From the NCBI GenBank assembly GCA_045837725.1, contig JBEWZL010000013.1, forward strand, positions 310,001 through 374,000: a DNA stretch of 64,000 nucleotides, given 5' to 3'. The position numbers were made by a program, and so were the translations under genes. The notes under the pieces are model-generated. The model worked only from the letters and a program-made list of their open reading frames with translations, ran no database searches and was not told the origin of the DNA. This document shows, one piece after another, positions 13,122 through 63,263 of the stretch; the stretch's first letter is position 1; every line of letters starts with the position of its first letter. Source of the DNA: Vermamoeba vermiformis (taxonomy: Eukaryota).

Positions 13122-15145
13122 TTACTTCCTCATGTGCGGAGGAGTGGGTGGCCGATTGATGAGGGACGGAACTGCAGCGAGGTTCTTGTACGTGAAGCCA
13201 ATGAACGGGATATCTGTCTGTCGTAGCCGTCGACCACGGAAGATGGGATATTTTGAATCAATTTCGCGCCGACTTTCAACCTCTTCTTGGACGTCTTTGT
13301 TGTCCTCGGCCTCGTCTTCTGAATCACTGAATCGATCGGGATCATCGACGGGGAAGTTCGATGTGTCCAATGGGTGCTCAATGCGTGGCACAATCGGTGC
13401 TTGCTGTGCGCGCATGTCATCCCAATCAATGTCCTTGAAGAACGGATGTCGCTTGATTTCATCTGCTCCACCCGTGCCAAGCCGTTCTTTTCTGTCAGTC
13501 AACAGCCGCCGAATCAAATCCTGTGCCTCGGGACTCAAATCAACATCATTAAACACCTCGTCTAGCGTTTGTTTCCAATTGATGATCTTGCGAATGGTGC
13601 TGTCACTGCCGCCTGATGAATCTGAAAAGAACACGGGGAAGCCAGCCATCATCTCGAACAAAATCACGCCGACAGACCACCAATCAGCTTCTTTGCCATA
13701 GCCCGTGCCATCGGGATTGAGCACTTCAGGGGCCATGTAATCAGGTGTGCCGACTTCAGAGTACGCGAGCACGCGTCTCTTTTGTTTCCACGAATTGAAT
13801 CTGTCCGAGTTGATGCTGCTGTACCAGTCCTTGTCTTTCTTATCTACCGTGTTCGTATTGTTGTTGTTGCCGCTGTTCGAGAGTGGCTTGTGTTCTGAAC
13901 TGCTCTCAGACTCCTGCTGCAAGTACTGCTGATATTTGTTTTGAAACTTTGACACGCGGTCGTCGGTGGTCAGACCCGTGCACAGACCAAAGTCAGACAG
14001 TTTGATGTGTCCGTTCTTGTCGAGCAATATGTTGTCGGGTTTGATGTCCCTGCAATAAGACTCGTGAGTTGAAGGTCTCTTATAACTGCCGCATTAATAC
14101 CACGTACCTGTGAATGTAATCAAACTTGTGAATGGATTCCACTGCCAGCACAATCTCCGCTGCGTAAAATCTCGCCTCCTCTTCAGTGAACACTTCGTAT
14201 TTCATCAGCGTGGTCATCAGATCTCCTCCGGGTGCGTACTCCATCACCAAATACAAGTATATAGCGTCCTACTAAGGTTATTTATACTGATCATGTTATT
14301 AACCATAACATTACGTGCCTGGAATGAGTAATACAGGCGCACTACCCACAAATTTTGTTTGTAAAAGTCGTTTAAATAGGCCAATGCGTCTCGTTCATTT
14401 TGAACGTGGGCAACCTATTCATTAAGAGGTATATATTAGTGACAGATATTGATGTAAATCTTGTCGAGTAAAGGATGGAAATAGTAAAGATTGCAAATTA
14501 CACGTCGATTACAAGAGAAATGATGACAGTTGCATGGATCATTAACACTCTATGTACCTGATTGCGCTCGATCATCTTAGATTTCTTCAGCTTTTTCATC
14601 GCGTACAGCTTTTTGGTGCCACGCATCCGCACGAGACGAACCTATTGAGCCAGTTTGTGACACATACTAACGGGACGGATCGTATTTCCGCATGCTTACC
14701 TCGCCAAAAGATCCTCTTCCAATAACTTTAATAGTTTGAAATGTATCTTTTGTTAGTCTTATTCGCCGTGCTCGTAAAAACTGTGTCTCGATCTGGTCTA
14801 ACTTTTTTCTTCTACCCTCGCGTTCTTCTTCACTTAAACCTAATTGGTCCATTTTTTGTTCGTACCGCACTCGCCTTGTAATATGAATTTTAAATTAATT
14901 TATCGGCATTTCAGATTTCAGAATTAATTTTCAAATCCACGCGTATCAATAGTTTACCTCAATTCTCGCTCGCCAATCGACTTAAATAAATTTTTGTAAA
15001 ATCTTTCTATGCCTGCTTTCGCTGCAGTTGCTGCTTCTTTCGTAGATGGTGAGATTTCTTTCTCTTCCTCCTCGTCATCGTCTATGTTAGCACGACTAAG
15101 GTCCAGGTTATCTGGATCATCCGAGTACTGATAATCTTCCATCAT
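13122..15145 (-). CDS. NDR/LATS-family AGC Ser/Thr kinase
   Basis: N-terminal Mob-binding region (ETQFLRARR), [24 protein letters not shown], long activation-loop insert, [14 protein letters not shown], hydrophobic motif FIGFTY. Confidence 0.93.
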
Positions 15146-23088: not shown

Positions 23089-26642
<3,554 letters not shown>

Positions 26643-33361: not shown

Positions 33362-35364
33362 ATGGATTTACTTGCACAATATGCGGACAGCGACGATGAG
33401 AAGAACGATCAGCCGCAAGCTGGTGGCGATGGTCTTCTATCGAAATTGAAGATGTCGATTAATGCTGCGCCAGTAGTTAAGGATGATATAGTGGTATGTA
33501 TTATTATTGAAGCGATTTCGCGAGGAATTATTAATAATTATCAAAAATTCAAAATAATATTTTTAAAAAATCCAATAAGCCTTAATATTACTCTAATAGT
33601 GATTAATCATTCAACTAAATATTAACACATCATAATATAGCCTCACGGTGATTATTTGAATCCAAACAAACATATGGTCTATTACAATCCCAAAGTTGAC
33701 GAAATGTATGCACCTTTGAAGGTAAGTCTACGATCAATCGAATATAAATAATATGCACACAATTTGCACGATGCTTATACAAGTAAATAGGGTCCAGAAG
33801 TTCCATATGCTAGTTTGCCGATCGGTGTAGCTTCCACGAAGAACACGTTGACTGGTTACGTGCAAGACGATCACGTGAATGACTTCGACTTCCGACTGCA
33901 GTACAACGAGTTCACTAGACGCGGTGTCGCTGCTGATCCAACTCAAGCTGCGGGCACCTATGTTGTCAGTCCATTCGCCAGTCAAGCAGGTAAGCACGCC
34001 GCGTGTCTTGCAATCATCTTTAGAGCACTCGTTAATGTCACTGATTAGCGCCTGAAAAGAAGAAGAAAAAGAAGAAAGGAGAGCGCAAACCAGAGTCAGA
34101 TCCAGGCAATGTGGACAGCTTTAGAGGCACGTGGGGCATGCCGTCAGAGATCGAACCTCCTGCCCAGGGCACACTCGAAGGCGAGGGCGATGAAGGTGAA
34201 GGTGAACCAGTCGAAGAGGGCGCTGAAGGACCTCGCCCTGAAGTTGCAGACAAAGTGGTGCAGATGGAAGAAGAAGAAGGACCAGAAGAGCAAGGTGAGG
34301 GTGAAGAGGGTGAGAGCCGACAGCGCAAGTACCCTGAAGCCTCGTCACAGCTGCACATTGAAGAGGAGATGGACTACATGGGCCGCACATGGGTCGATGC
34401 CCCGTCGCACTTGAAGCCTTGGGACGGCCGTAGCGTGTCAACAGTGAAGTGTTTCTTGCCCAAGAAGCGCATCCACACGTGGTCTGGACATGCCAAGGGT
34501 GTGTCATCAATCCGCTTCTTCCCTGGCTACGGTCACTTGTTGCTCTCGTCCTCCATGGACTCCACGGTCAAGATCTGGGAAGTGTACAACAAGCGACGAT
34601 GTGTGCAGACCTATCAAGGCCACAGCAAGGCCGTGCGTGAAGTGCAGTTCTCGAGCGATGGTCGTCAGTTCTTGTCGGCCAGTTACGATCGATTGGTGCG
34701 ACTGTGGGACACAGAGACTGGCAAAGTGTTGGGCACTTATTCCACGGGCAAAACACCGTACTGCGTCAAGTTCCATCCAACACGACCGAATTTGTTCTTG
34801 GTCGGTCAACAAGACAAGAAGATTATTGAGTGGAACACAGAGACCAACAAGATCATTCAGACTTACGACCGTCACTTGGGTGCTGTGAACACCATCACAT
34901 TTTTGGACGACGGCAGACGATTTGTGTCGACAGCTGACGACAAGTCCATTCGTATTTGGGACCACGGCATTCCCGTTGATTCCAAGTACATTGCCGAGCC
35001 ACACATGCACTCCATGCCCGCAGCCACTCTGCACCCGAACGGCAAGTGGTTCTTGGCGCAGTCACTCGACAATCAGATCGTTGTGTACAGCGCCAAAGAT
35101 CGCTTCAAAGCCAACAGAAAGAAACGCTTCACTGGCCATTTGAGCGCTGGTTACGCGTGTCAAGTGTCAGTGTCACCTGATGGCAAGTACGTCATGTCAG
35201 GTGACAGCATTGGACAGGTCTGGTTCTGGAGCTGGAAGAACGCGAAAGTATTCAAACGACTGGCCTGTCACAAGGGCGTGGCTATTGGCTGCGAATGGCA
35301 CCCGACTGAGCCCTCGAAGATTGCTACGTGTGGCTGGGACGGTACGATCAAGTACTGGGATTAA
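33362..35364 (+). CDS. CDC40: Pre-mRNA processing factor 17 (WD40)
   Basis: [47 protein letters not shown] repeats ending [13 protein letters not shown]. Confidence 0.95.
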
Positions 35365-37103: not shown

Positions 37104-38082
37104 TTATTTGAACGCAGCAATGTTCTCGTGGATGAATTCTTTCAGGGATTTGCCTTTAGATCCAGTCAGCTTCTCCAAGTCCTCGTACTGCACGTTGTAA
37201 TAACCACTTCTGAAGTACCAAAACAAATTTGAATAGGCATCGACAGCTTCTTGATTGGGCAAAAACGTGGCCGCGATCTTGCGCAATGTCTCGTCGTCCA
37301 TGGGCTGATAAGTGACCGTCTCACCGAGCTCTGCGCTGAACAATTCTGCGACTTGGTGCATGGTCAGTGTATCGGGCCCAGTCAAATAATAGTCTTTGTT
37401 TTCATGGCCTGGTGTCGTCAAGGCAACCACAGCGGCAGCGGCGATGTCACCAGGGTAAATGAAGTTCAATTTTGCCTCGCCGACTGCTTTGTAGATCTTC
37501 TTATCGTTCTTAATGGCTTCAGTGTCTTGCAGCAAGAAATTCGAATAGAACAACGCAGGACGAAGAGAGGTGACTGCCACGCCCGCTTCTTTCAACAGCT
37601 CTTCAGCTACGACGTGTTCGTTGCCCCAAATAAATATGTCTCTATTCTCACTACCGAGTGATGCGAGCTTGACGATGTGTTTCACGCCGCTCCCTGATAA
37701 TGTCGTTAGCAAGGGTTAGAAAGTAGCGCTTCGCTTAATGTCACGTACTTTTTGCGGCGACAGCAACATTCTTTGTGGCAGCCAAAGCTTGACCTAATAT
37801 TCATTTGTTAGCGTCAATGTCATACAATAGGATGCAATGTTGCGTACCAGGTGGTAATCCTAAGAAAGCTTTCTCGATGCCTTTCAAAGCCGCATCCAAG
37901 GAGTCCTGATCGTAAAAGTCGACTAATACTGGCTCGACGAGATCTCCGTACTTCTTCTTGAGTTCCTCAGCCTTGGTAGTGTCTCGTGCCGCAGCTTTGA
38001 AGTGAATTCCTTTTTTGGCAAGCTGATCTGCAACGTGCGATCCGATTGAACCAGTTGGAACGAAGACGAAAATGTTGCTCAT
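37104..38082 (-). CDS. NmrA-like atypical SDR, NAD(P)-binding protein
   Basis: IFVFVPTGSIGSHV Rossmann loop, GVKHIVKLAS, SLRPALFYSN, FIYPGDIAAAAV..LT, YYLTGP. Confidence 0.85.
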
Positions 38083-40779: not shown

Positions 40780-43596
40780 CTACTTAAAGATGGTCGAGTC
40801 AAATGAGTCTACTGACTCACCGTAATCGGCCATACACTCGATGAATCGCTCCACAACAGAGTTTCGGTTTGTAGACTGTAGAGCCATTTCTGCAATCATA
40901 ATGAGCTTCTTGACCGGCAATGCGCCCTTGAACACCGACTTGAGGCGCGCCAACTCTTCGTCGCTGAAGCCACCCAACTCGCGCAACACTTGCACGGCTT
41001 CAGTGCCACCATTGACTGACGGCACTGACAGCACGGCATTGAACACAGCAGTCAGCTCCATGCCTCTGAGCACTTCCTTGGTGCTTGTAGTTCCAATGAC
41101 GAGCAACTTGCGGCCCTTGGGCGGTGCTTTCTTGAACAGCACCAACAGTGTTTGCAGCACCAAGTTTGAGAAGCGCGGACCAATTGGAGTGAACTCGAGC
41201 AAGCGTTCAATGTCATCTACTATGATCAAACTAAGCTGCGACTTGTAAGCGTCCTCGAACACCTTGGAAATCTTCGCAGCCTTGCCCATTTCGTTGTAGC
41301 CAACCAATGACTCGGGGCTGAGCAGCTTGACGTAAGGGAAGTCACTCTCCATTGCAAGCTTGGCTGAGAGTGCAGTCTTGCCGCTGCCAGTAGGACCTTC
41401 CAAGAGCACGGAGACGAGTGGTGTGCGGTCACTGTTCTTGACTTGTTGCACGAACAACTTGACAGCGTCGTACAACTTCTCGAATGATTCACCGTACGAG
41501 ATGACACCGTTGCTGATGCACATCTCCAAGTCATCTTCACTCACACCAAAGTTGGGCTTGACTTCAGACAAGGCGCGCATAAAGTCTTCGCGCATCACTT
41601 TGACAGTCTCGGGATTGATTGTCTTGGTCGGGTTCTCCGGGTCGATTTGACGTTGCAAAGCAAAGGACGAGGCACTGCGCACGAGACCCTAATGAAGACA
41701 TTGTGAGCATCAACAATGACGTATTAATATCGAGAATAACGTACTTCTAACTCGGCACCGCTGAAGTTCTTAGTGAGCAATGAAATCTCCATCAAATCAA
41801 CGTCAGGACCAATCATGTTGTTCGATTGCATGTGCAGGGTCTTGATCTTCAAGATTTGATGACGACCCTTCTCGTCAGGCAAACCAATCTCCATGTGCAC
41901 TTCGAGACGACCAGGACGCAACAAGGCTTCGTCGATCAACTCCTTTCTGTTGGTCATACCAATCACGAGCACGTTGTTCACCTCTTCAACACCATCGAGC
42001 TTGGCCAACAACTGATTGACGACGCTGTCACCGACACCAGTGCCTGTGTTGCGCGCACCTCGTTCTTTGCAAATAGCGTCGAGTTCGTCGAAAATAATAA
42101 TGTGAAGGTTGCTCTCGTCACCCTTCTTTTTGTATTCATCTTCAGCGTCCTTGAACAAATTACGAATGTTTTCTTCTGATTGACCGACAAACTTGTTCAA
42201 AATTTCAGGACCGTTGACTGTGCAGAGCGTTAGAACCATTGTTAAAAAGTCGATTATAAGCTTTCAAGTACATACCAATCTTGGGCTCGTGGGCGTTCAA
42301 CATTTTACCGATTTGACGAGCAATGAGTGTTTTACCAGTACCAGGAGGACCGTACAAGAGGAGACCTGTCACGAGTGTCAAACCGAATGTCATACGCGAA
42401 CACGTGCGTGTCACTTACCCTTGACGTGCTTGATGCCTAATTTAGTAACAAACTCACGAGGGAAGACACGTGAAGCGAAGGCACGACGGAAGATGTCAGC
42501 AATTTCTTTGTCGAGACCTCCGATGCCCATCTTTTCAAAGTTGAAATCTGGTCTGAAGATGGCAACTGCAGCACTGTTACAAATGCGCGGTGAGTATACA
42601 ACGCGATGTAGTACTATGCACTGTGACGTACTTGGGGTTGCCAGTGATCTTGACGGTGCCTGTGCCAGCCTGGGCGAATTCGAGTTCAGATTGTTGCACG
42701 AGAAGACCGCGCTTGGGGACACGTCTGGTGGTCTTGGCCTCTTTCTTTTCGTCTTTCTTGCCTGACAATTGTTCGAGGTCCACGACTTGCACCTCGAGCA
42801 CGGTGAACATCACATTGACGCTGTTCACATCGCAAACGAATTTTTGACCTAATTCGGGCAATATTTAGTTTCGGTCAAATTCAATACCAAATCTTTTTGA
42901 ATAATTGCGCTGATTGAATATGATCACGTACCGACAGTAAAGAATTGATTGGTAAAGTTTCTGCGAACAATTTCTTCGAGCTTCTTGGCCTCGAATACTG
43001 GAGGGCCACCATTTGTTTTGGAAAGCAAATCCACTTCGAGTTTCAGTGAACTAAGGAAGATATTGCTCTTCTTGGGCTTGAATAATTTGCATGACACGGG
43101 TTCACCAAGAGAAACCTCCAAGCAGCGACGTTGAGGGTTGCTGAATCCGATCGCTCCTTTTTCCAATCCCTTGTGATCTCTATGCAATAATAAAACCGTA
43201 AATAATCATTATTGATGTGAGATGTTATTTTTCTATCAGCTAGATTAAAAATTTTTGAAATTTAGGTAAAATATTTTCCGTTTATTGTTTTTCAAACGAT
43301 CTAGTTATTATTAATGTAGTAATCGTCAATAAACGTCCAAAATTATCCGACATAAATTATTTGCCATTTAGTTTCACTTACTGGAACGTAAATACGAAAT
43401 TTTTCACTTTGAGGTAATTTCCTTGAGTCAGCGGAGTAGCTTCAGTGCTAACACGCGCAGAAAGTGCCTTAGCGTCCTCAGTGCTGATATATGCAAAGTT
43501 GGTGTACACTAAGCTTTCGCTGGGGAGCTTAGCGACTTTGAGTTCAAGGGATGAAGATGAGCTTCGAGTGGGAGCTGGGGTAGTTGTCTTGCTCAT
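40780..43596 (-). CDS. NSF: Vesicle-fusing ATPase NSF/Sec18
   Basis: [53 protein letters not shown]2 [16 protein letters not shown]. Confidence 0.97.
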
Positions 43597-44045: not shown

Positions 44046-46202
44046 TTAAGCCACAGGACCCTCGGCCTGTCCGTCAGTAGTCGGAGCATTGGTCGCGGGT
44101 GCAGCAGTCGGCGCTGGGGGCTTGGTGAACTCGGTGAAAAACGCGTGCTTGAGTGCCTCTTCAGGAGTGATGCGCTTGGCTGGGTCAATCGCAGTGCACT
44201 TGTCAATGAGGTCCGCTAGCAACGAGACCAACTTCTTTTCTTGATCTGAAATGTCGTCGCTGTAGCTTTGCAGCAGTTCTGTGTTAATGTTGCGTGTCTG
44301 CTTGATGCTGACTGTGTGCACCTTCTCAAAGATCTTGCTGGTCACTGGATCCACCAGACGCTCTTTGAAGTTGAGGTTGTCGTCAAAGTGCACAGGGCGC
44401 AAGCGACCTTTCTGCAACATCTTCTTGGGGAACTTGCCCTTGCACTCCATGATCACCTTCAAGTGGTGGTTGTTGTTCTTAGATTGGAACATAAACTTGC
44501 CGCGTGCAAGCTCGTACAACGTGCAGCCAAGTGAGAAAACATCGATTGGGAAACTGTAGTCGAGACCAAGAATAATCTCTGGGGCTCTGTAGTAACGACT
44601 CACCAAGTAACCATTGTAAATATCGGGCTCCAATGGATTGTACTCGTAAGCACTGCCCAAGTCAGCGAGTTTGACCGTGCTCTTGTCCTTCACGAGAATG
44701 TTGTCAGGCTTCAGATCAGCGTGAATGATGTTGTTCCTCTTGAGCAGCAGAAGAGCCTTGAACAACTTGAATGCGTAGACACGCACGGCCTTGACACCGA
44801 GACCAACGCGGTTACCGTACTTCTTGACCAGTTCACGCAAGTTCATATCCATAGGTTCGAACACCAAGCACAATCGATCGCGGTCCTCGAAGTGATCTAG
44901 CAACTTGATGGTGTTGTAGCGTCCTTCAGGATCAGCTGCGCTCAGTTGAGCCAAAATTGCCATCTCCTTTTGACCGGCACGCTTCATGTGATCGTTGTTT
45001 CGCAGCAATTTAATGGCGACAGTCTGACCAGTCGTCTCGTCAATTGCTGACAACACGTTGCTGAACACACCTTTGCCGTGATGTCCAGTCACTTGGAATC
45101 TGTTGTTCAGTCGTTCACCAATGCGGTATCTGTAGTAGCCTTGTTCATCTTCTGAAGGATCAGCTTCGCGCACGTTGAGGGTCTTGAACTTAGTTCCCTT
45201 GGGCACTCTGTCGTCCTCCACACTGTCGCCACTGTCGTCAGCAAACATGTCGAATCCATTGTCTTCTTCTTTTTTGACTTCTTTCTTCTTGAAATCGTTG
45301 TCAGGCACGTCGTTAGAGATCTCATCAAAGACGTGCTGTGTCATAATCAACTCGGGCTTGACGTAACCATTAGCTTCTTCTTTCTTCACGCCATTAGCCA
45401 CCGGCTCAGCCTCCACTTCAGGCTTCGTGTCTACCTGCATTGGCTCGGGCTTGACTTCAGCTGCCTGGTCGTCAGATGGCTGAGCATTATTTTTGGCGTA
45501 CTTAGCCAGAATAGCCATGCGCCGCTCTCGTCGTTCGCGAATGGCTCGTTCTTCGTCGGTCTCGCTCGTGGCTGATTTGAGCTGTTCTTCGACTTTCTTT
45601 TTGAACTCTTCCTCATTCTCCTTTTCTTGTTTGGGCGTAGGTGCTGCAACTGCTTCTTTTACGTCGCGAGGCGTGTCTTTCTCTCGTCGCGCACTATCAC
45701 GAAGAGTGGATGAGTCACTGGTTTTATTATCACCATATGAATATCTCGAACGTTTTTCAGGCCTCTCACGAGATTGAGACCGACTATGAGACCGAGATCT
45801 CTTCTTACTACTTCTCTCCCGCTCGCGGGATCTATCTCTTGACCGTCGATCCTTATCATCTCGATGCGATCGGCTGTGGTGCCTATCTCTGTCTGAGCGG
45901 TCTCCATGTCTGTCCTTTTCCCCGATGTCGCGGCGGTGGTCTTTGTTATCGCGCTCTCTATCGCGCTTACCTTCTTTATCGTAATGACGATCTTCCTCTC
46001 TAAATTGAAAATAATATTAGTAGCTGTAAATAAGTTATAAATATGCATTAATTATATGTGGTATATTTGAGTACCAAATAAATTTTACCGAGCCTAAATT
46101 AACCGAGATGCCAAATCTTTCTCGGCGTTTACGAAATTATTGATCTGCCACTGGTTGATACTACCTCGAGGATTTGTATGAAGAACGATCAACTTGTAAC
46201 AT
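44046..46202 (-). CDS. PRPF4B: PRP4 kinase (PRPF4B)
   Basis: Short exon 1 (MLQVDRSSYKSSR) and an RS/RD-rich N-terminus; DEQGYY, GKGVFSNV, HADLKPDN, YLVSRYYRAPE. Confidence 0.93.
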
Positions 46203-47381: not shown

Positions 47382-48930
47382 ATGTTTTTTGATACCCAGA
47401 ACGTAGTTACGGTAAGGAACGAGCTGCCACGAAATTGAATTTGTGTCTTGGCTTTGAAAATTGTTTTTTTCCCGAATGGTAAATTTATAAATACGGAAAT
47501 AATAAGTCAAGTCGATAATCCTTTAGGATTAAATAGTAATTTTCGTTTTCAATTTATTCGCAATTTTTTGACGTGTGTTTAAGGAACGCATCCGGCGCTG
47601 CTTTGAGAATCAAGAAGAAACTCTTACGTTATCTTATACAAATGCCACTGCAGTGCCAGAACAAATATCAACCTTGACGCATCTGAAAAGGTTGGAATTT
47701 TGTTACAACTCGCTGATCACCATTCCTGACGAAGTATTTGCTTTGACTCAACTCAAAGTGCTCACGTGGGGCAATGGACTGTTAAATATTTCACCTTCAA
47801 TATCACAGCTGCAACAACTCGAACAGCTCAATCTTTCTACCAACAAACTCACGCGTCTGCCGAGTGAAATATCATCACTGACCAATTTGACACTGCTCAA
47901 TGCACGGTTAAATCCAACGGACGAGCTGCCTGATAGTCTATTCACTTTGACGAAGATGCAAGAGCTGTACATGTCTGCGAGTGTATTGACGCAGATCCCG
48001 AGTGGCATTGGGTCATTCACTAATCTGAGGGTCCTATCGCTGTCTGACAATAAGATAACGGAGTTGCCTGACACTCTTGGCGAGTTGACAGCATTGCAAA
48101 CACTCAACTTGGGCAACAACAAATTCAACACGTTGCCCGAGTCGCTCTTCTCGCTCAACAACTTGCGCGAGCTCGTGCTGGTTAACAACATCTTGCACGA
48201 TGTTAGTGGCATTGAAAGACTCGGACTGACAAAGCTAGCTATTGGAGGCTCGGGGGCCAGTCCGATACCACTCCCCTTGAAAGAATTTCCGACCCCCTTT
48301 CTGCAGCTCACTTCGCTCTATCACCTCGAACTGCGACACACTGATGTGCAAGCTATTCCCGACGAGTTTTATCAACTCTCGCACTTGACGTACCTGTCAG
48401 TCAGCTACAATGGCCTGAAGACATTGCCAGACTCATTCTCCAAGCTGACCTCGCTGCTCAAGTTCTTCGCATTGGGCAATCTGTTCACTGAAATACCACC
48501 AGCACTGATGCAATTGACCAATCTCAAGTCACTGTCACTCGGCAAGAATTCAATTCGCAAGATCGACCATCAAATCTCGAAGCTCGTGAATCTGTCACAG
48601 CTGTCACTTGGCGAGAATAATCTGCGCTACGTGTCACCAATGCTGTCGTGCTGTCAACACGTCAGTAATTTGAACCTGTCCAGCAACAACATTTGCACAC
48701 TGCCCAGTGAGATTGGTGAACTGAAGAACTTGCGCTTTTTGTCGCTACGAGGCAATCCGTTGGCATTTATCCCTCCAGAAGTTGGATTTTTGACGAGTTT
48801 GAGGCTCGTTCGATTCGATAAATCGAAGTTTCCTAAAAAGGTAATTACTCATCGCACCGACTTCGAACAGTTCGTTGTACATAGTGATTTATATGACCAC
48901 GAAGACGATGACGACTCGTTTGTCGTGTAA
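47382..48930 (+). CDS. Leucine-rich repeat protein (SHOC2/LRRC-like, about 16-17 LRRs)
   Basis: Repeated LxxLxLxxNxLxxLP units; probable short first exon MFFDTQNVVT joined in phase 0 to ORF 47575-48930. Confidence 0.88.
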
Positions 48931-59031: not shown

Positions 59032-61339
59032 ATGGAACAAAATCAGACGTCAAAACTTGACAAGTGGTACGAGCGCATCGTAGACTATGATGCGCAGGAT
59101 CACTTGACTAAGATTTCCACGTTCGATCACGAAGCTTGGCTAAAGTGGTTCAACAAGTTCAGTCGAGATAGAGACACAGCATCTATTCGGGCCATGAGGT
59201 ACGTATTTTTAATTGATATTTTTGCGCTTGATCGTTCATAGTGATAGTTTCTAAATTTAATACTGATTTTTTTCTCTATTTTTCTCATTGCAGAAAATTG
59301 ATCTGGTACGGGACCGAACAATACAGCCGACGCAGAAAATACAAATTACTCGATGGCACTGAAGTATATTTATGCGATAGTAATGATGTGATCGTTGAAC
59401 AAGCAAGTCTTGATAAAATTTATTTGCGGATCTGACCTATGTTTTAAGGCCAAGAGAACTAAGTTGTTTGACTTCACTCGCAACTTCAACTTGGATTTTA
59501 CTGATGAGATTAACGGCCTCAATTATGATACCGTAGTTGAAGTCGTTGAAGGCGATTGTCTCGAGGAGGGCATCCGCTTGAAAGAGCTCGGATTCAACCC
59601 TGCAGTCTTGAACATGGCTAGTGCTAAGCGAGCAGGAGGAGGTACGACTAATATAAATAGTATATATAACTCGTATTTACTCTTAATTAGGCTATCTGAA
59701 CGGCGCTGGAGCACAAGAAGAGAATCTGTTCCGCCGATCGAACTACTTTCAATCGTTAGAAGACCCTGATCAATTAGACAAAGAACGGTCGTGGTACTAC
59801 CCCTTGCCTGAGTTCTCAGGGTACGCATAACAATACTCTTCTTATCATCCTTTTGCTGATCCACTTTACTTTAGCGTCTATTCGCCTGAAGTGTTTGTGT
59901 TCAGAGAATCAGAGCAGAAAGGTACCAGTGACGATAATAGTGCATATATAAATAGGTCTAATGTATTGTACAGGTTACGGACTGATGCCCAAGCCAGTCA
60001 CCATGGCCTTCATCGCTGTGGCTGCTTACGCGTCACCCAAACTTCAAGAGAACAGAAAACGACCTGCTTATTTAGGTACATATAACTACATATGCCTTTA
60101 GTCAGTTAGTCACGGCTAATATCGTGTGCAATAGGCAATTTGGTCCTCGCTGATAACTTTGTCGAGAAAACTAAGCGCAAAATGCGAGTCATTCTCTACC
60201 TCGCCCTCGTCAATGGTCATGATGCAGTCGTGTTGTCAGCAATGGGCTGTGGTGCTTATAAGAACCCTCCAGGGTACGTTAATATACTTGGCAAGTGCCT
60301 CCTAGTGACATCTTTGACACGTTATTTTCTTGCAGTCACATTGCTCAATTGTTCCGCGAAGTCATCAATGAACCCAAGTTCAGAAACAAATTCAAACACA
60401 TTTCATTTGCTATATTTAGTAAGTCATCACGTGCTCTGTAAATCGCTCAGTGGAAGCTAACAAGTAATAACCAGATGATCACAACGCTAACAAGGCACAC
60501 AATCCGTTGGGCAACTTTTATCCGTTTGCAGAAGTGTTCAAAGACATGTCTGCAAAGAACAAAACCAAGTCACAGACTAACGCCAAGAATGTGGCGACAA
60601 ACAAGACCAACAACGCGAATTCAAAGAACAATAACACAAATAACAACACCAACGCGAAGAATAACAACAATAATACCAACAGTAATAATACTAACTCCAA
60701 TACGAGTGTCAGCCCAGTCGAGAACAAATCAGCAGAATCAAGTCATATTAGCCCCTCGAACAACAACACTGTTAATCTTGAGACAAAAGTAGATCAAATG
60801 GAGATTGATGAGAAAGGTGAGTAGTAAACAGTGACATCAATTGATGACATTCAGAGAGTTAACTGTTTTTCTTAGTAATCAATTTCTACCGCACAAATGA
60901 AGTGCCCTACGGCGTGTTCAGCAACTTCGCCAAGTACCCCATCAAACTGAAAGACAAAGTGTGGCCCACCACCGAGCACTACTTTCAAGCACAGAAGTTT
61001 GCAGGCACACCGCACGAAGAGACCATGCGCAATGTCAAGACTGCAGCTGAAGTGGCCAAAGCTGGTCGTGATCGATCGCTGCCACTGCGTCAAGACTGGA
61101 ACGAAGTGAAAGAACAAGTGATGGAAGAGGCACTCATGGCCAAGTTCACGCAACATCCACAGCTCAAAAAAGTGTTGTTGGACACGAAGAACGCAGTGCT
61201 CGTCGAACACACGGCGAATGACAGCTATTGGGCTGACGGCGGTGATGGCTCGGGGCAGAACAGACTCGGCTACTTGTTGATGAAAGTGCGCACCACACTG
61301 CGCGATGAGGCCGAGAAGAAGAGTCAGGCCAAGAAATAA
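59032..61339 (+). CDS. Microbial-type PARG macrodomain fused via an Asn-rich linker to a NADAR (YbiA-like) domain
   Basis: VLNMASAKRAGGGYLNGAGAQEENLFRRS, YSPEVFVFR, VLSAMGCGAYKNPP (PARG); intron 60817-60875 splices in frame to FYRTNEVPYGVFSNF..TEHYFQAQKF..KFTQHPQL..LVEH..DSYWADG..GQNRLGYLLMKVR (NADAR). Confidence 0.88.
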
Positions 61340-61500
61340 TTTGAGTCCTTTGTTAATAAACTGTGTAGCTAAATTCAACTGATCCACCTGATCCAGTACA
61401 AATATTCGAAACACAATTTTTTTTCTAAACAAGTATTATAATAATAAGTAAGGTGGTTATGGGTGAGTGGGTATAACAGTTTATATGATACAATTCAAAT

Positions 61501-63263
61501 TTACATTTCGTTGTTGTCATCGTACAACTTGCGGATCTGTTCAGGTTCAGTCGGCAAGTGTGTAATAGGACAACGACGATAGCTGCGCGTGTAGTTGAGG
61601 AGGCAAGGGTAACAATACACAAAGCCGCTCATTGCCATCGCTGGATTGGTGCGCGGCTTTTGGCAGATCGGGCACAACTTTTTGTCTTTAGGAATATCAA
61701 TACCGCTTTGTGCTTTCTATAAAATAACAACAATATTAATATGGTATAATGACAACTGCTTGAATGCTTAAAATGATTAATTCTAAAAACGTGCGATCCA
61801 ATCCTCAAAGTTGGATGCCGTTACACGACACTAAATAAGGCTCTAGATGCCTAAAAATTGCACCAATAATATATGTATATGACGTATTAGTACCTTAGGA
61901 GGTTCAGGTGGAGGAGGAATGGGCTGTTGTTGCGTGACTAAGTTCTGATTCTCGCTGTACCACCACTCCAAGAACTTGAATAAAAAGATGCCAGTAGGCA
62001 AGATGTACTTGCTGTAGTCGAGCATGGTGCTTGTACCGTCCACCAGTGCACCTATAATATCACATAATGTTAACTAAGTGTAAATACAAAATAAATTCTT
62101 GAAATTTGGATCTTTCTTTAGAATGATATTGGACAGATTTGTAAAGTACAAATAGGATTATATGAGAGTATATACGATACTTACCCCATACTAAGTGCAT
62201 AATACCGCGTTCTCTATTATCGCGCATCCGTTGCATTTTGTACGAGAATTGTTTCCTCGATTGCTCGACGAGATCTTGCATTAAGAGTCGCTTGACGGTG
62301 AGTCCCTGCCAGTGCAAGAAGGGCGTATAATAGGTCGTGTAATTGTACATGTAGAGCAGTTGGTAAATGAAGAACAGACTCTCGTAGCAGGCATTGAAGA
62401 TCGGCCAAACGACTTTAAATATCGCTAGTAGCACTCTGAATATGACCTATACGTATATGCAAGTGTTACAATACATTTTGTAGCGATTTGGAAGCGTTTT
62501 GAAGCGGATGTGATCCGGCAGTACACGCGATCGAAAACTCGATTGAAAGAAGTGCACTTACATTTCTGCGCAAAGGTCTATCTTGATCGCCATCTTGTGG
62601 CATGGGTGGCAAGCGAAAGAAGTCAGAATCAACTGGTCCATTGCCGAATTTGTCTTTGTAATAGCGATCGAGCTTGTCTTTCAAATAAGGAACTCCAACC
62701 TAGTTAAATAGACCATATAAATTATTACATATTCATAATAGTGCTATTCTCGCATTTGGTTACCAAAAAGAACAAGCTCCACTTCTTGTGAGAAGATTTC
62801 AAAGGCAGGGATTTGCCATCTACACTTGTAAGGCATCTCTTAAGGCCATAGAAATTTTCTGAGAATGAACCGTCTATATAAATCAGTAGTTAGCATAAAG
62901 TAACTTCGTTTATAACGTTGTAATAATTCTAACGATTTTTTCGGATCGGGAACTGTGATCGTACCGTAATATTTTAAATAATGCTTCTCCATTATAAATA
63001 ATGCTCCATAAAATAGCTCGTCCATATATTTTAAGCACCAGTTCAATATTGGGATACGTTGTGACAAGATCTGAAAATAATTATTAATATTCAATTAGGG
63101 CTATTTTGATAATTAAATAGAAAATAAAATAATTATTAATACATACCGAGAACATATATTTAATAGCAGGCTTTAATGAGGGCATCATTTGAGTTTGAAT
63201 AAACATTTCAAAAAAAGATGGCCTGCTGGCATCCGCAGGGTTGAAATTATACAGAATATTCAT
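61501..63263 (-). CDS. PEX12: Peroxin 12
   Basis: RPSFFEM, SFSENFYGL, LGVPYLKDKLD, IFLFKFLEWWY, PPPP, degenerate RING CPICQKPRTNP...SGFVYCYPC...CPIT. Confidence 0.93.

Follow-up and report, generated by a model that had tools for sequence, protein, structure and literature searches.

A spliced gene of Vermamoeba vermiformis that joins a microbial-type PARG macrodomain to a YbiA-type NADAR domain, a candidate two-domain ADP-ribose eraser

Does a single gene of the amoeba Vermamoeba vermiformis encode two unrelated folds for the removal of ADP-ribose, and what might such a protein do? The question is raised by a locus at positions 59032-61339, on the plus strand, of a 64,000-nucleotide (nt) stretch of DNA (assembly GCA_045837725.1, contig JBEWZL010000013.1, positions 310,001 to 374,000), which is referred to here as the window. 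An annotation made from the letters of the DNA without database searches (the sequence-only reading) had proposed that a bacterial-type poly(ADP-ribose) glycohydrolase (PARG) macrodomain and a complete NADAR domain are fused here in one eukaryotic gene. Pfam matches, RNA reads across the splice junctions, orthologous proteins and the predicted fold of an ortholog uphold that proposal. They support the locus as one gene, spliced to a single mRNA, in which a PARG macrodomain is fused to a complete NADAR domain, and we think that the product is probably an enzyme with two activities.

The gene model has ten exons and nine introns and contains 591 codons, from an ATG at 59032 to a TAA at 61337-61339 (Table 1). 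The introns are 46-95 nt long, with a G+C content of 22-43% compared with about 43% for the window, and eight of the nine have GT-AG borders, the ninth being GC-AG. Only the spliced combination gives a frame that is open across all nine. The position of the first exon is matched by the ortholog P0453, which has the identical Met and identical residues over the first 18 positions.

The junction that joins the two halves is that of intron 9. Splicing was followed in raw RNA-seq reads from a close relative (two runs, X18 and X20, with reads 90-95% alike to the window) and in a third, mixed run, X1. The joint 60816/60876 was present in 41 X18 reads (29 start positions), in 51 X20 reads (32 start positions) and in one X1 contig of 672 nt, the shorter side of which has 171 nt. 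In the notation used for the reads the joint is 60814->60874, which skips 59 nt between GT and AG (cut +2). Removal of the intron creates the codon for Val438 from G(60816) and TA(60876-77), in frame with the NADAR exon, and the frame that is left unspliced stops at an in-frame TAG at 60822-60824; the 59-nt intron, its G|TA joint and this stop had all been predicted correctly from the sequence.

Joints for the other eight introns were also found, some of them exact, in X1 contigs, and others inexact by a few substituted letters, since the sequence of the relative is not the same close to the junction. The exon 1/2 joint (59198/59294) is present in an X1 contig. At intron 2, six X18 reads skip 47 nt with one letter between, a net removal of 46, and the protein P0453 is continuous across this GC-AG site. 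Splicing of intron 3 is seen in an X1 contig, five X18 reads and four X20 reads. The RNA contigs are uninformative on transcript ends; the match of the X1 contig to the window ends at 61365.

Three public proteins read through all of the junctions in the model, including the GC-AG intron. When the NADAR exon was used as a protein query, the matches included P0004, a 434-amino acid (aa) protein on a 1495-nt contig, which matches both PF10021 (PARG) and PF08719 (NADAR) and is 93% identical. Its cluster includes P0453 (591 aa, with the same Met start and 500 of 584 aligned residues, or 85.6%, identical to the model) and P0455 (568 aa, from a contig of 1749 nt). All three are transcript-like, and they were taken as intronless because their contigs are too short to hold the introns.

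Between the two domains lies a linker of about 90 residues (~346-437, encoded by 60540-60815) rich in Asn, Thr and Ser, as the sequence-only reading had also described. Compared with P0004, the PARG part of the model is 94.7% identical over 187 aa and the NADAR part 93.5% over 155 aa; the substitutions and gaps fall in the linker. There, X1 and a further run, X16, differ from the window by the loss of 3 nt (60695) and the gain of 6 nt (after 60733), both of which keep the frame. The depth of X18 and X20 is zero at 60458-60700, with the flanks on both sides covered, because the relative is too divergent there. This is as expected if the Asn-rich linker is a fast-evolving in-frame tether which is coding but seemingly unconstrained.

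The PARG half was identified by two matches to the Pfam profile PF10021, one on exon 3 (31.8 bits) and one on exon 4 (30.1 bits), both above the cutoff of 23.5; the two are contiguous in the profile across intron 3 (41-90 and 92-118). The fused relatives score 78-103 bits with the same profile. The PARG signature which contains the catalytic glutamates has the form GGG-X6-8-QEE (PMC8120803). It is found here as GGG-x7-QEE, one residue longer in its spacing than first read, with the glycines at G155-G157 and the rest at Q165-E166-E167. The motif is encoded by 59635-59641 and 59691-59722, continuous after the removal of intron 3, and it is unreadable in any single genomic open reading frame (ORF) because that intron interrupts the codon of the third Gly. 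In the relatives the signature aligns with the QEE of the PARGs of T. curvata and D. radiodurans (3SIG and the 5ZD series); judging by its title, structure 3SIJ is the E115A mutant of this QEE motif. The second motif, GCGAY.NPP, was also found where it had been noted, at G287-P295, and in the relatives this loop aligns with the GCGVFGNDP and GCGVFRNDP loops of solved bacterial PARGs. With the sequence of P0453 as query, the E values against proteins of known structure were 6.8e-50 for YbiA, about 1e-22 for D. radiodurans PARG and 1.2e-20 for T. curvata PARG. By these matches, the PARG half clearly belongs to the microbial-type family (PF10021/DUF2263/TIGR02452).

Exon 10 alone matches PF08719 with 135.6 bits (cutoff 35.1, E 2.6e-39), over positions 2-163 of the 163 in the profile. 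Among solved structures its sequence is closest to E. coli YbiA (2B3W, E 5.9e-51), with 83 of 143 aligned positions identical (~58%, a hand count on the alignment); the Phytophthora NADAR 8BAU gives 3.2e-4. E471 (60974-76), K478 (60995-97) and E548 (61205-07), whose positions, like all residue positions here, were counted by hand, align with E43, K50 and E125 of 8BAU. Those residues touch the distal ribose and phosphates and are described as mechanistically relevant (Schuller et al., PMC11543638), and their equivalents in the E. coli C7 NADAR are E88, K95 and a conserved Glu near the C-terminus, E173 (PMC11543638). The reading of this half as a NADAR domain therefore stood, with one amendment: on the difference in E value between 2B3W and 8BAU it is assigned to the YbiA family, and not to the DarT1-antitoxin type which had also been considered. 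The lack of an early start codon was confirmed as well. The NADAR frame has no ATG before a Met inside the domain, and an ORF called by bacterial rules starts at GTG 60902, so dropping the first strand of the domain.

A fold was predicted with AlphaFold for the 85.6% identical ortholog P0453, and not for the protein of the window, from an alignment of 108 sequences. The model had a mean predicted local distance difference test score (pLDDT) of 87.1 and a predicted template-modelling score of 0.65. Both domains are mostly above 90, as over residues 11-340, and pLDDT falls below 50 at 370-426, within the linker. When the model was searched with Foldseek, the matches were T. curvata PARG (3SIH; E 8.5e-18, TM score on the target 0.78), D. 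radiodurans PARG (E 1e-14, TM 0.76), E. coli YbiA (E 8.6e-14, TM 0.81, root-mean-square deviation 1.5 A, 56% identity) and the Phytophthora NADAR (E 1.2e-7, TM 0.67). Macrodomains of the MacroD type rank far below the PARG matches. The model has the macrodomain fold together with an N-terminal helical extension as in T. curvata PARG.

The biochemistry of the separate families has been described in a series of recent papers, of which the relevant passages are drawn on here. NADARs act on DNA, where they release ADP-ribose from guanine N2 by hydrolysis (PMC11543638). Four NADAR subtypes from E. coli and phages, YbiA among them, cleave ADP-ribosylated guanosine in vitro, and YbiA acts on single-stranded DNA (PMC11125620). 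YbiA-type and general NADARs also strip ADP-ribose from cytidine in DNA and RNA (PMC12945103). On RNA, in a test of a panel of enzymes, NADARs are reported as the sole family that reverses ADP-ribosylation of guanosine, and they are inactive on ADP-ribose at phosphate ends and 2'-OH groups (PMC11833690). According to the same source, bacterial-type PARGs are the sole bacterial enzymes that reverse ADP-ribosylation of RNA at the 2'-OH, they are the most active of the enzymes on 5'-phosphate ADP-ribosylation, and a bacterial PARG shielded cells against an RNA-targeting toxin. What eukaryotic NADARs and most microbial PARGs do physiologically is called unknown in this literature (PMC11543638, PMC11125620, PMC11833690, PMC12945103).

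How does the amoebal protein compare with the systems already known? It resembles T. curvata PARG (3SIG/3SIH) and D. radiodurans DRB0099 (5ZDA-5ZDG) in the signature, the GCG-aromatic-x-N-x-P loop, the fold and the helical extension (for the ortholog, E 1e-22 to 1e-20 and TM 0.76-0.79). Unlike them it is eukaryotic and intron-rich, only ~27-30% identical, with a conserved extension at the C-terminus of the domain and a NADAR attached, and it belongs to a branch rich in eukaryotes and giant viruses (Balamuthia, Capsaspora, rotifers, Pandoravirus). The NADAR half has the catalytic Glu/Lys/Glu at the same positions as E. coli K-12 YbiA. That enzyme, however, is free-standing, bacterial and encoded in a LexA-controlled operon (PMC11125620), whereas the NADAR half here is encoded by the C-terminal exon of a fusion gene that is spliced. 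With DarG1, the NADAR antitoxin of DarT1, it has in common the superfamily and the proposed hydrolysis of guanine-N2-ADP-ribose, but not the features of DarG1, namely membership of the BC4488-type subfamily, a DNA-binding N-terminal extension, a catalytic Asp two residues before the conserved Glu (PMC11543638) and an adjoining DarT1. A scan of ten ORFs in the window found no DarT1 next to the NADAR gene, and in place of the basic beta1-beta2-alpha1 DNA-binding extension of DarTG1 (PMC11543638) the YbiA-like core directly follows the disordered linker.

Fusion of a NADAR to a second, unrelated ADP-ribose hydrolase fold is also found in bacterial NADAR-Macro (PF08719+PF01661) and ARH-NADAR (PF03747+PF08719) proteins, in which the partner is MacroD-type or ARH rather than PARG-type and the domain order is often reversed. 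Two erasers in one chain are thus not a new principle, since MacroD-type fusions are common; what is new is that the partner is PARG-type, that the setting is a eukaryotic gene which is spliced and expressed, and that the pairing recurs in amoebae and chlamydiae. We found no description of a PARG-NADAR pairing in the literature, in a search that did not extend to supplements and that a passing mention elsewhere could have escaped. The word PARG does not occur in PMC11543638 or PMC11125620, and the passages of PMC11833690 on fused or co-occurring domains, in a paper that covers both families, mention no such fusion. The name NADAR itself goes back to de Souza and Aravind in 2012 (cited in PMC11543638).

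The sequence-only reading had put the fusion forward as a novelty. Rare it is, but not unique. Among the best 120 long NADAR proteins PF10021 occurs in one (P0004), a Macro domain in 25, ARH in one and Tpt1 in one; among the best 120 relatives of P0004, four have both PF10021 and PF08719 (P0004, P0121, P0122 and P0124). When 1.84 billion cluster representatives were scanned without a profile, there were 20,086 matches and at least four further two-domain proteins (P0331, P0333, P0397 and P0422). Pfam was run on 33 of the best 150 of these matches, those that were long or had several matching stretches, and the count of pairings is a lower bound. P0122 and P0331 come from the transcriptomes of two amoebozoans, Ceratiomyxa fruticulosa and Copromyxa protea, respectively. 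P0333 (MBS3904512.1, annotated as a TIGR02452 family protein) comes from a metagenome-assembled genome of the chlamydial genus Simkania and has 1001 aa with one PARG and three NADARs. The pairing is therefore rare and scattered over Amoebozoa, environmental transcripts and chlamydiae.

P0397 and P0422 resemble the N-terminus of P0333, and the three form their own starred clade in the PARG tree. Like the protein of the window they have a microbial PARG followed by NADAR in one polypeptide; unlike it they are bacterial, have a long extension at the N-terminus and, behind a single PARG, one or three NADARs, and by eye have Met opposite E548, in P0397 and P0422 as well as in two of the three NADARs of P0333. 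A different arrangement is seen in P0121 (621 aa, Joint Genome Institute, JGI), where the C-terminal half of a Tpt1/KptA domain (355-434, profile positions 89-177 of 177) lies between PARG (70-200) and NADAR (470-609). The 5'-phosphate ends to which Tpt1/KptA enzymes add ADP-ribose are a substrate of bacterial PARGs (PMC11833690).

In a quick maximum-likelihood tree of 91 PARG domains the nine fused rows are scattered, with six label changes, at least four of them forced by starred branches. A tree with all nine as one clade was not rejected by the approximately unbiased test (p 0.226, log-likelihood difference 45.1), and since this is compatible with a single clade the claim of repeated independent fusion was dropped. 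The NADAR tree, of 64 rows (P0004, P0121, P0122, P0124, one in three of the remaining segments out of 181, and the domain of the window), was largely without resolution; in it the very divergent NADARs of P0122 and P0124 are on end branches of 10. The NADARs nearest to that of the window which carry a name are bacterial (Paenibacillus sp. in the P0152 cluster, 63% identical), and acquisition of the domain from bacteria is plausible.

From the structure and splicing of the gene, the identity of its domains, the conservation of the catalytic motifs and the predicted folds we infer two activities, their substrates and a physiological role, as follows. The 591-aa protein is, rather probably, a bifunctional ADP-ribose hydrolase, a broad-spectrum eraser whose PARG half would remove O-linked marks and whose NADAR half would remove base-linked ones. 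In the microbial-type PARG (residues 1 to ~345), the loop G287-Y291 would hold the diphosphate of ADP-ribose and E166/E167 would cleave O-glycosidic linkages, such as the ribose-ribose bonds in poly(ADP-ribose) (PAR). By analogy with the bacterial PARGs that have been tested, this half might also act on RNA with ADP-ribose at the 2'-O and on 5'-phosphate ends that carry ADP-ribose. In the NADAR (439-591), E471, K478 and E548 are expected to cleave the N-glycosidic links of ADP-ribose to bases, to the N2 of guanine and probably to cytosine, in both DNA and RNA. The flexible, fast-evolving Asn-rich tether, with ~60-90 residues, may allow the two halves to act on one and the same piece of damaged nucleic acid or chromatin, so that the tethered halves would make one enzyme for most of the known classes of nucleic-acid ADP-ribosylation as well as PAR. 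We take a broad-spectrum eraser to be the best reading because the PARG-type and NADAR families have complementary, non-overlapping substrates (PMC11833690). The most plausible use would be to clear marks left by foreign ADP-ribosyltransferase toxins or by transferases of the cell itself. A part in defence against toxins or viruses is what the sequence-only reading, too, had suggested as a possibility. Homologues of pierisin and MTX have been noted in Amoebozoa (PMC12945103), and an endogenous writer is therefore possible.

Several points weigh against a broad-spectrum eraser. YbiA is also an N-glycosidase of intermediates in the riboflavin pathway (PMC11543638), and it is less efficient on ADP-ribosylated guanine than other NADARs and gives no protection from DarT1 (PMC11125620, PMC11833690, PMC12945103). 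Because E. coli YbiA does not rescue cells from DarT1 toxicity (PMC11125620), a negative result in such a rescue would not refute the eraser idea. The NADAR half is not kept catalytically intact in every fused protein: in their sequences P0122, P0124 and P0331 appear by eye to have no Glu opposite E548, with another residue there or the stretch deleted. The lineage of the window retains the canonical NADAR active site. Among the ten ORFs scanned in the window there is no gene for an ADP-ribosyltransferase, and we found no enzymatic data on this protein or on any PARG-NADAR fusion. The RNA evidence comes from relatives and not from the strain of the window itself. As to the three divergent proteins themselves, their NADAR halves may be inactive or re-purposed.

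Could the locus instead consist of two separate genes, or reflect an artefact of annotation or assembly, with a PARG gene that ends at the TAG in intron 9 and an independent NADAR gene behind it? The unspliced frame does stop there, and six public calls of 154 aa (P0452, P0454 and P0456-P0459, on contigs of up to 590 kb) consist of the NADAR exon alone, P0457 being the same as exon 10 of the window except for its first residue. Against this, 92 junction reads from two runs and a contig from a third span intron 9, three intronless orthologs cross the junction, no ATG is found until the middle of the NADAR domain, and no cluster of molecule starts was reported for the 5' end of the NADAR exon, the sole one listed being at 61041, in one run. 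The 154-aa calls are what ORF calling in the prokaryote style makes of a eukaryotic exon, a mis-annotation that is systematic, and annotation as a stand-alone NADAR conceals the PARG-NADAR architecture. Two genes are contradicted by these observations, and we give that explanation almost no weight.

One fused protein could still serve the metabolism of NAD and ADP-ribose, with its NADAR half acting as an N-glycosidase on reactive small molecules such as riboflavin intermediates or adducts derived from ADP-ribose, and its PARG half breaking down free or protein-bound PAR to ADP-ribose. Exon 10 is indeed far closer to YbiA than to the DNA-acting Phytophthora NADAR (E 5.9e-51 and 3.2e-4), YbiA-type enzymes are known for the cleavage of riboflavin intermediates (PMC11543638), and the JGI labels of the relatives are 'N-glycosidase YbiA' or 'ribA/ribD-fused'. 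A DNA-binding extension of the DarT1 type (PMC11543638) is also lacking, the Pfam match starting with the third residue of the exon 10 query, directly after the linker. The company that NADARs keep speaks otherwise, as the great majority of their fusion partners are enzymes of ADP-ribose (Macro in 25 of 120, with ARH, Tpt1 and PARG besides) and the riboflavin enzyme PF00925 occurs in only two of the best 120 long NADAR proteins; YbiA itself, moreover, hydrolyses ADP-ribosylated G and C on DNA and RNA in vitro (PMC11125620, PMC12945103). Metabolite housekeeping accordingly seems to us rather unlikely. It is improbable that one half is a non-catalytic reader which, by binding ADP-ribose, recruits a hydrolase of a single activity. 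Macrodomains are often readers, and the NADARs of P0122, P0124 and P0331 that have no Glu opposite E548 are on very long branches, but the protein of the window keeps the catalytic residues of each half intact, and both domains are ~94% conserved relative to P0004 while the linker drifts.

The gene converges with a downstream gene on the minus strand for a Pex2/Pex12-type peroxin. Two upstream flanking ORFs gave no Pfam match. An antisense ORF of 187 aa from stop to stop (60872-61435, minus strand), which overlaps the NADAR exon, has nothing in its favour and is probably a shadow ORF. The other genes recognised in the window are included in Table 1. For a fragment of one of them, NSF, the best relatives that carry a name are Balamuthia (60%), Stereomyxa, Arcella, Pelomyxa and Physarum, which makes the host amoebozoan, in line with the amoeba assumed in the sequence-only reading.

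Table 1. Positions, within the window, of the parts of the PARG-NADAR gene and of other genes.
Feature	Position	Strand	Remarks
Exon 1	59032-59198	+	Met1 to first two bases of Arg56; onset of PARG N-terminal helical extension; gene model
Exon 2	59294-59402	+	Gene model; P0453 and P0455 unbroken across the exon 1/2 and 2/3 junctions
Intron 2	59403-59448	+	46 nt, GC-AG (GCAAGT...AAG); the one donor of the nine without GT; no other splice preserves the frame
Exon 3	59449-59641	+	PARG catalytic part to G155-G156 and first base of G157; PF10021 profile 41-90, E 2.2e-7
Intron 3	59642-59690	+	Splits third Gly codon of GGG, inside the PARG signature
Exon 4	59691-59820	+	Completes GGG-x7-QEE; Q165-E166-E167 at 59714-59722; PF10021 profile 92-118, E 7.1e-7
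Exon 5	59875-59921	+	Gene model; introns 4 and 5 joined across in X1 contig
Exon 6	59974-60075	+	Gene model; intron 6 skipped by 18 X18 and 23 X20 reads
Exon 7	60135-60273	+	Loop G287-C288-G289-A290-Y291..N293-P294-P295 at 60245-60271
Exon 8	60336-60418	+	Gene model; introns 7 and 8 spanned by X1 contig
Exon 9	60475-60816	+	PARG end (to ~60539), Asn/Thr/Ser-rich linker (~60540-60815), first base of Val438
Intron 9	60817-60875	+	59 nt, GT-AG (GTGAGT...TTAG); in-frame TAG 60822-60824
Exon 10	60876-61339	+	Complete YbiA-type NADAR (Val438/Ile439-Lys591) and stop TAA 61337-61339
Candidate polyadenylation signal AATAAA	61355-61360	+	16 nt 3' of the stop; read from sequence
Pex2/Pex12-type peroxin	61501-62446	-	Convergent, downstream; PF04757 E 9.3e-7, C-terminal RING PF13445 E 1.6e-5; at least one intron
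Protein kinase fragment	13122-14093	-	
UCH ubiquitin hydrolase	25305-26642	+	Long Lys/Ala/Ser-rich tail
WD40 protein	34045-35364	+	
NmrA-like protein	37104-37715	-	
NSF (vesicle-fusing ATPase)	40780-42263	-	
Protein kinase	44046-46016	-	Arg/Ser/Asp-rich N-terminus
Leucine-rich repeat (LRR) protein	47572-48930	+	

What does the fusion mean for the biology of these organisms? Papers from 2023-2026 describe NADARs and bacterial-type PARGs separately, as enzymes that reverse non-overlapping kinds of DNA and RNA ADP-ribosylation (PMC11543638, PMC11125620, PMC11833690, PMC12945103). Their natural tethering in one chain is a 'Rosetta-stone' hint that the two may act on the same substrates in vivo. 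The fusion is expressed in free-living amoebae, and it is also present in chlamydiae, a group with amoeba-associated members. It is conceivable, though we hold it to be doubtful, that PARG-NADAR fusions are a sign of amoebae and their intracellular guests being in conflict over the ADP-ribosylation of nucleic acids. In such a conflict the protein of the amoeba would serve immunity, as an enzyme of broad spectrum, and the chlamydial versions, with their long N-terminal extensions, would be secreted counter-measures; P0121 might tie the module to ADP-ribosylated RNA and DNA ends. If that were true, the amoebal enzyme would strip base-, 2'-OH- and phosphate-linked ADP-ribose laid down on the DNA or RNA of the host by the toxins of ingested or resident bacteria and giant viruses, and proteins of the Simkania type would erase marks placed on nucleic acids by the host or by competing microbes. 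The fusion offers an easily expressed object with which to ask whether one enzyme may handle all of the major linkages of ADP-ribose to nucleic acids, and whether it would protect a phagotroph from such toxins.

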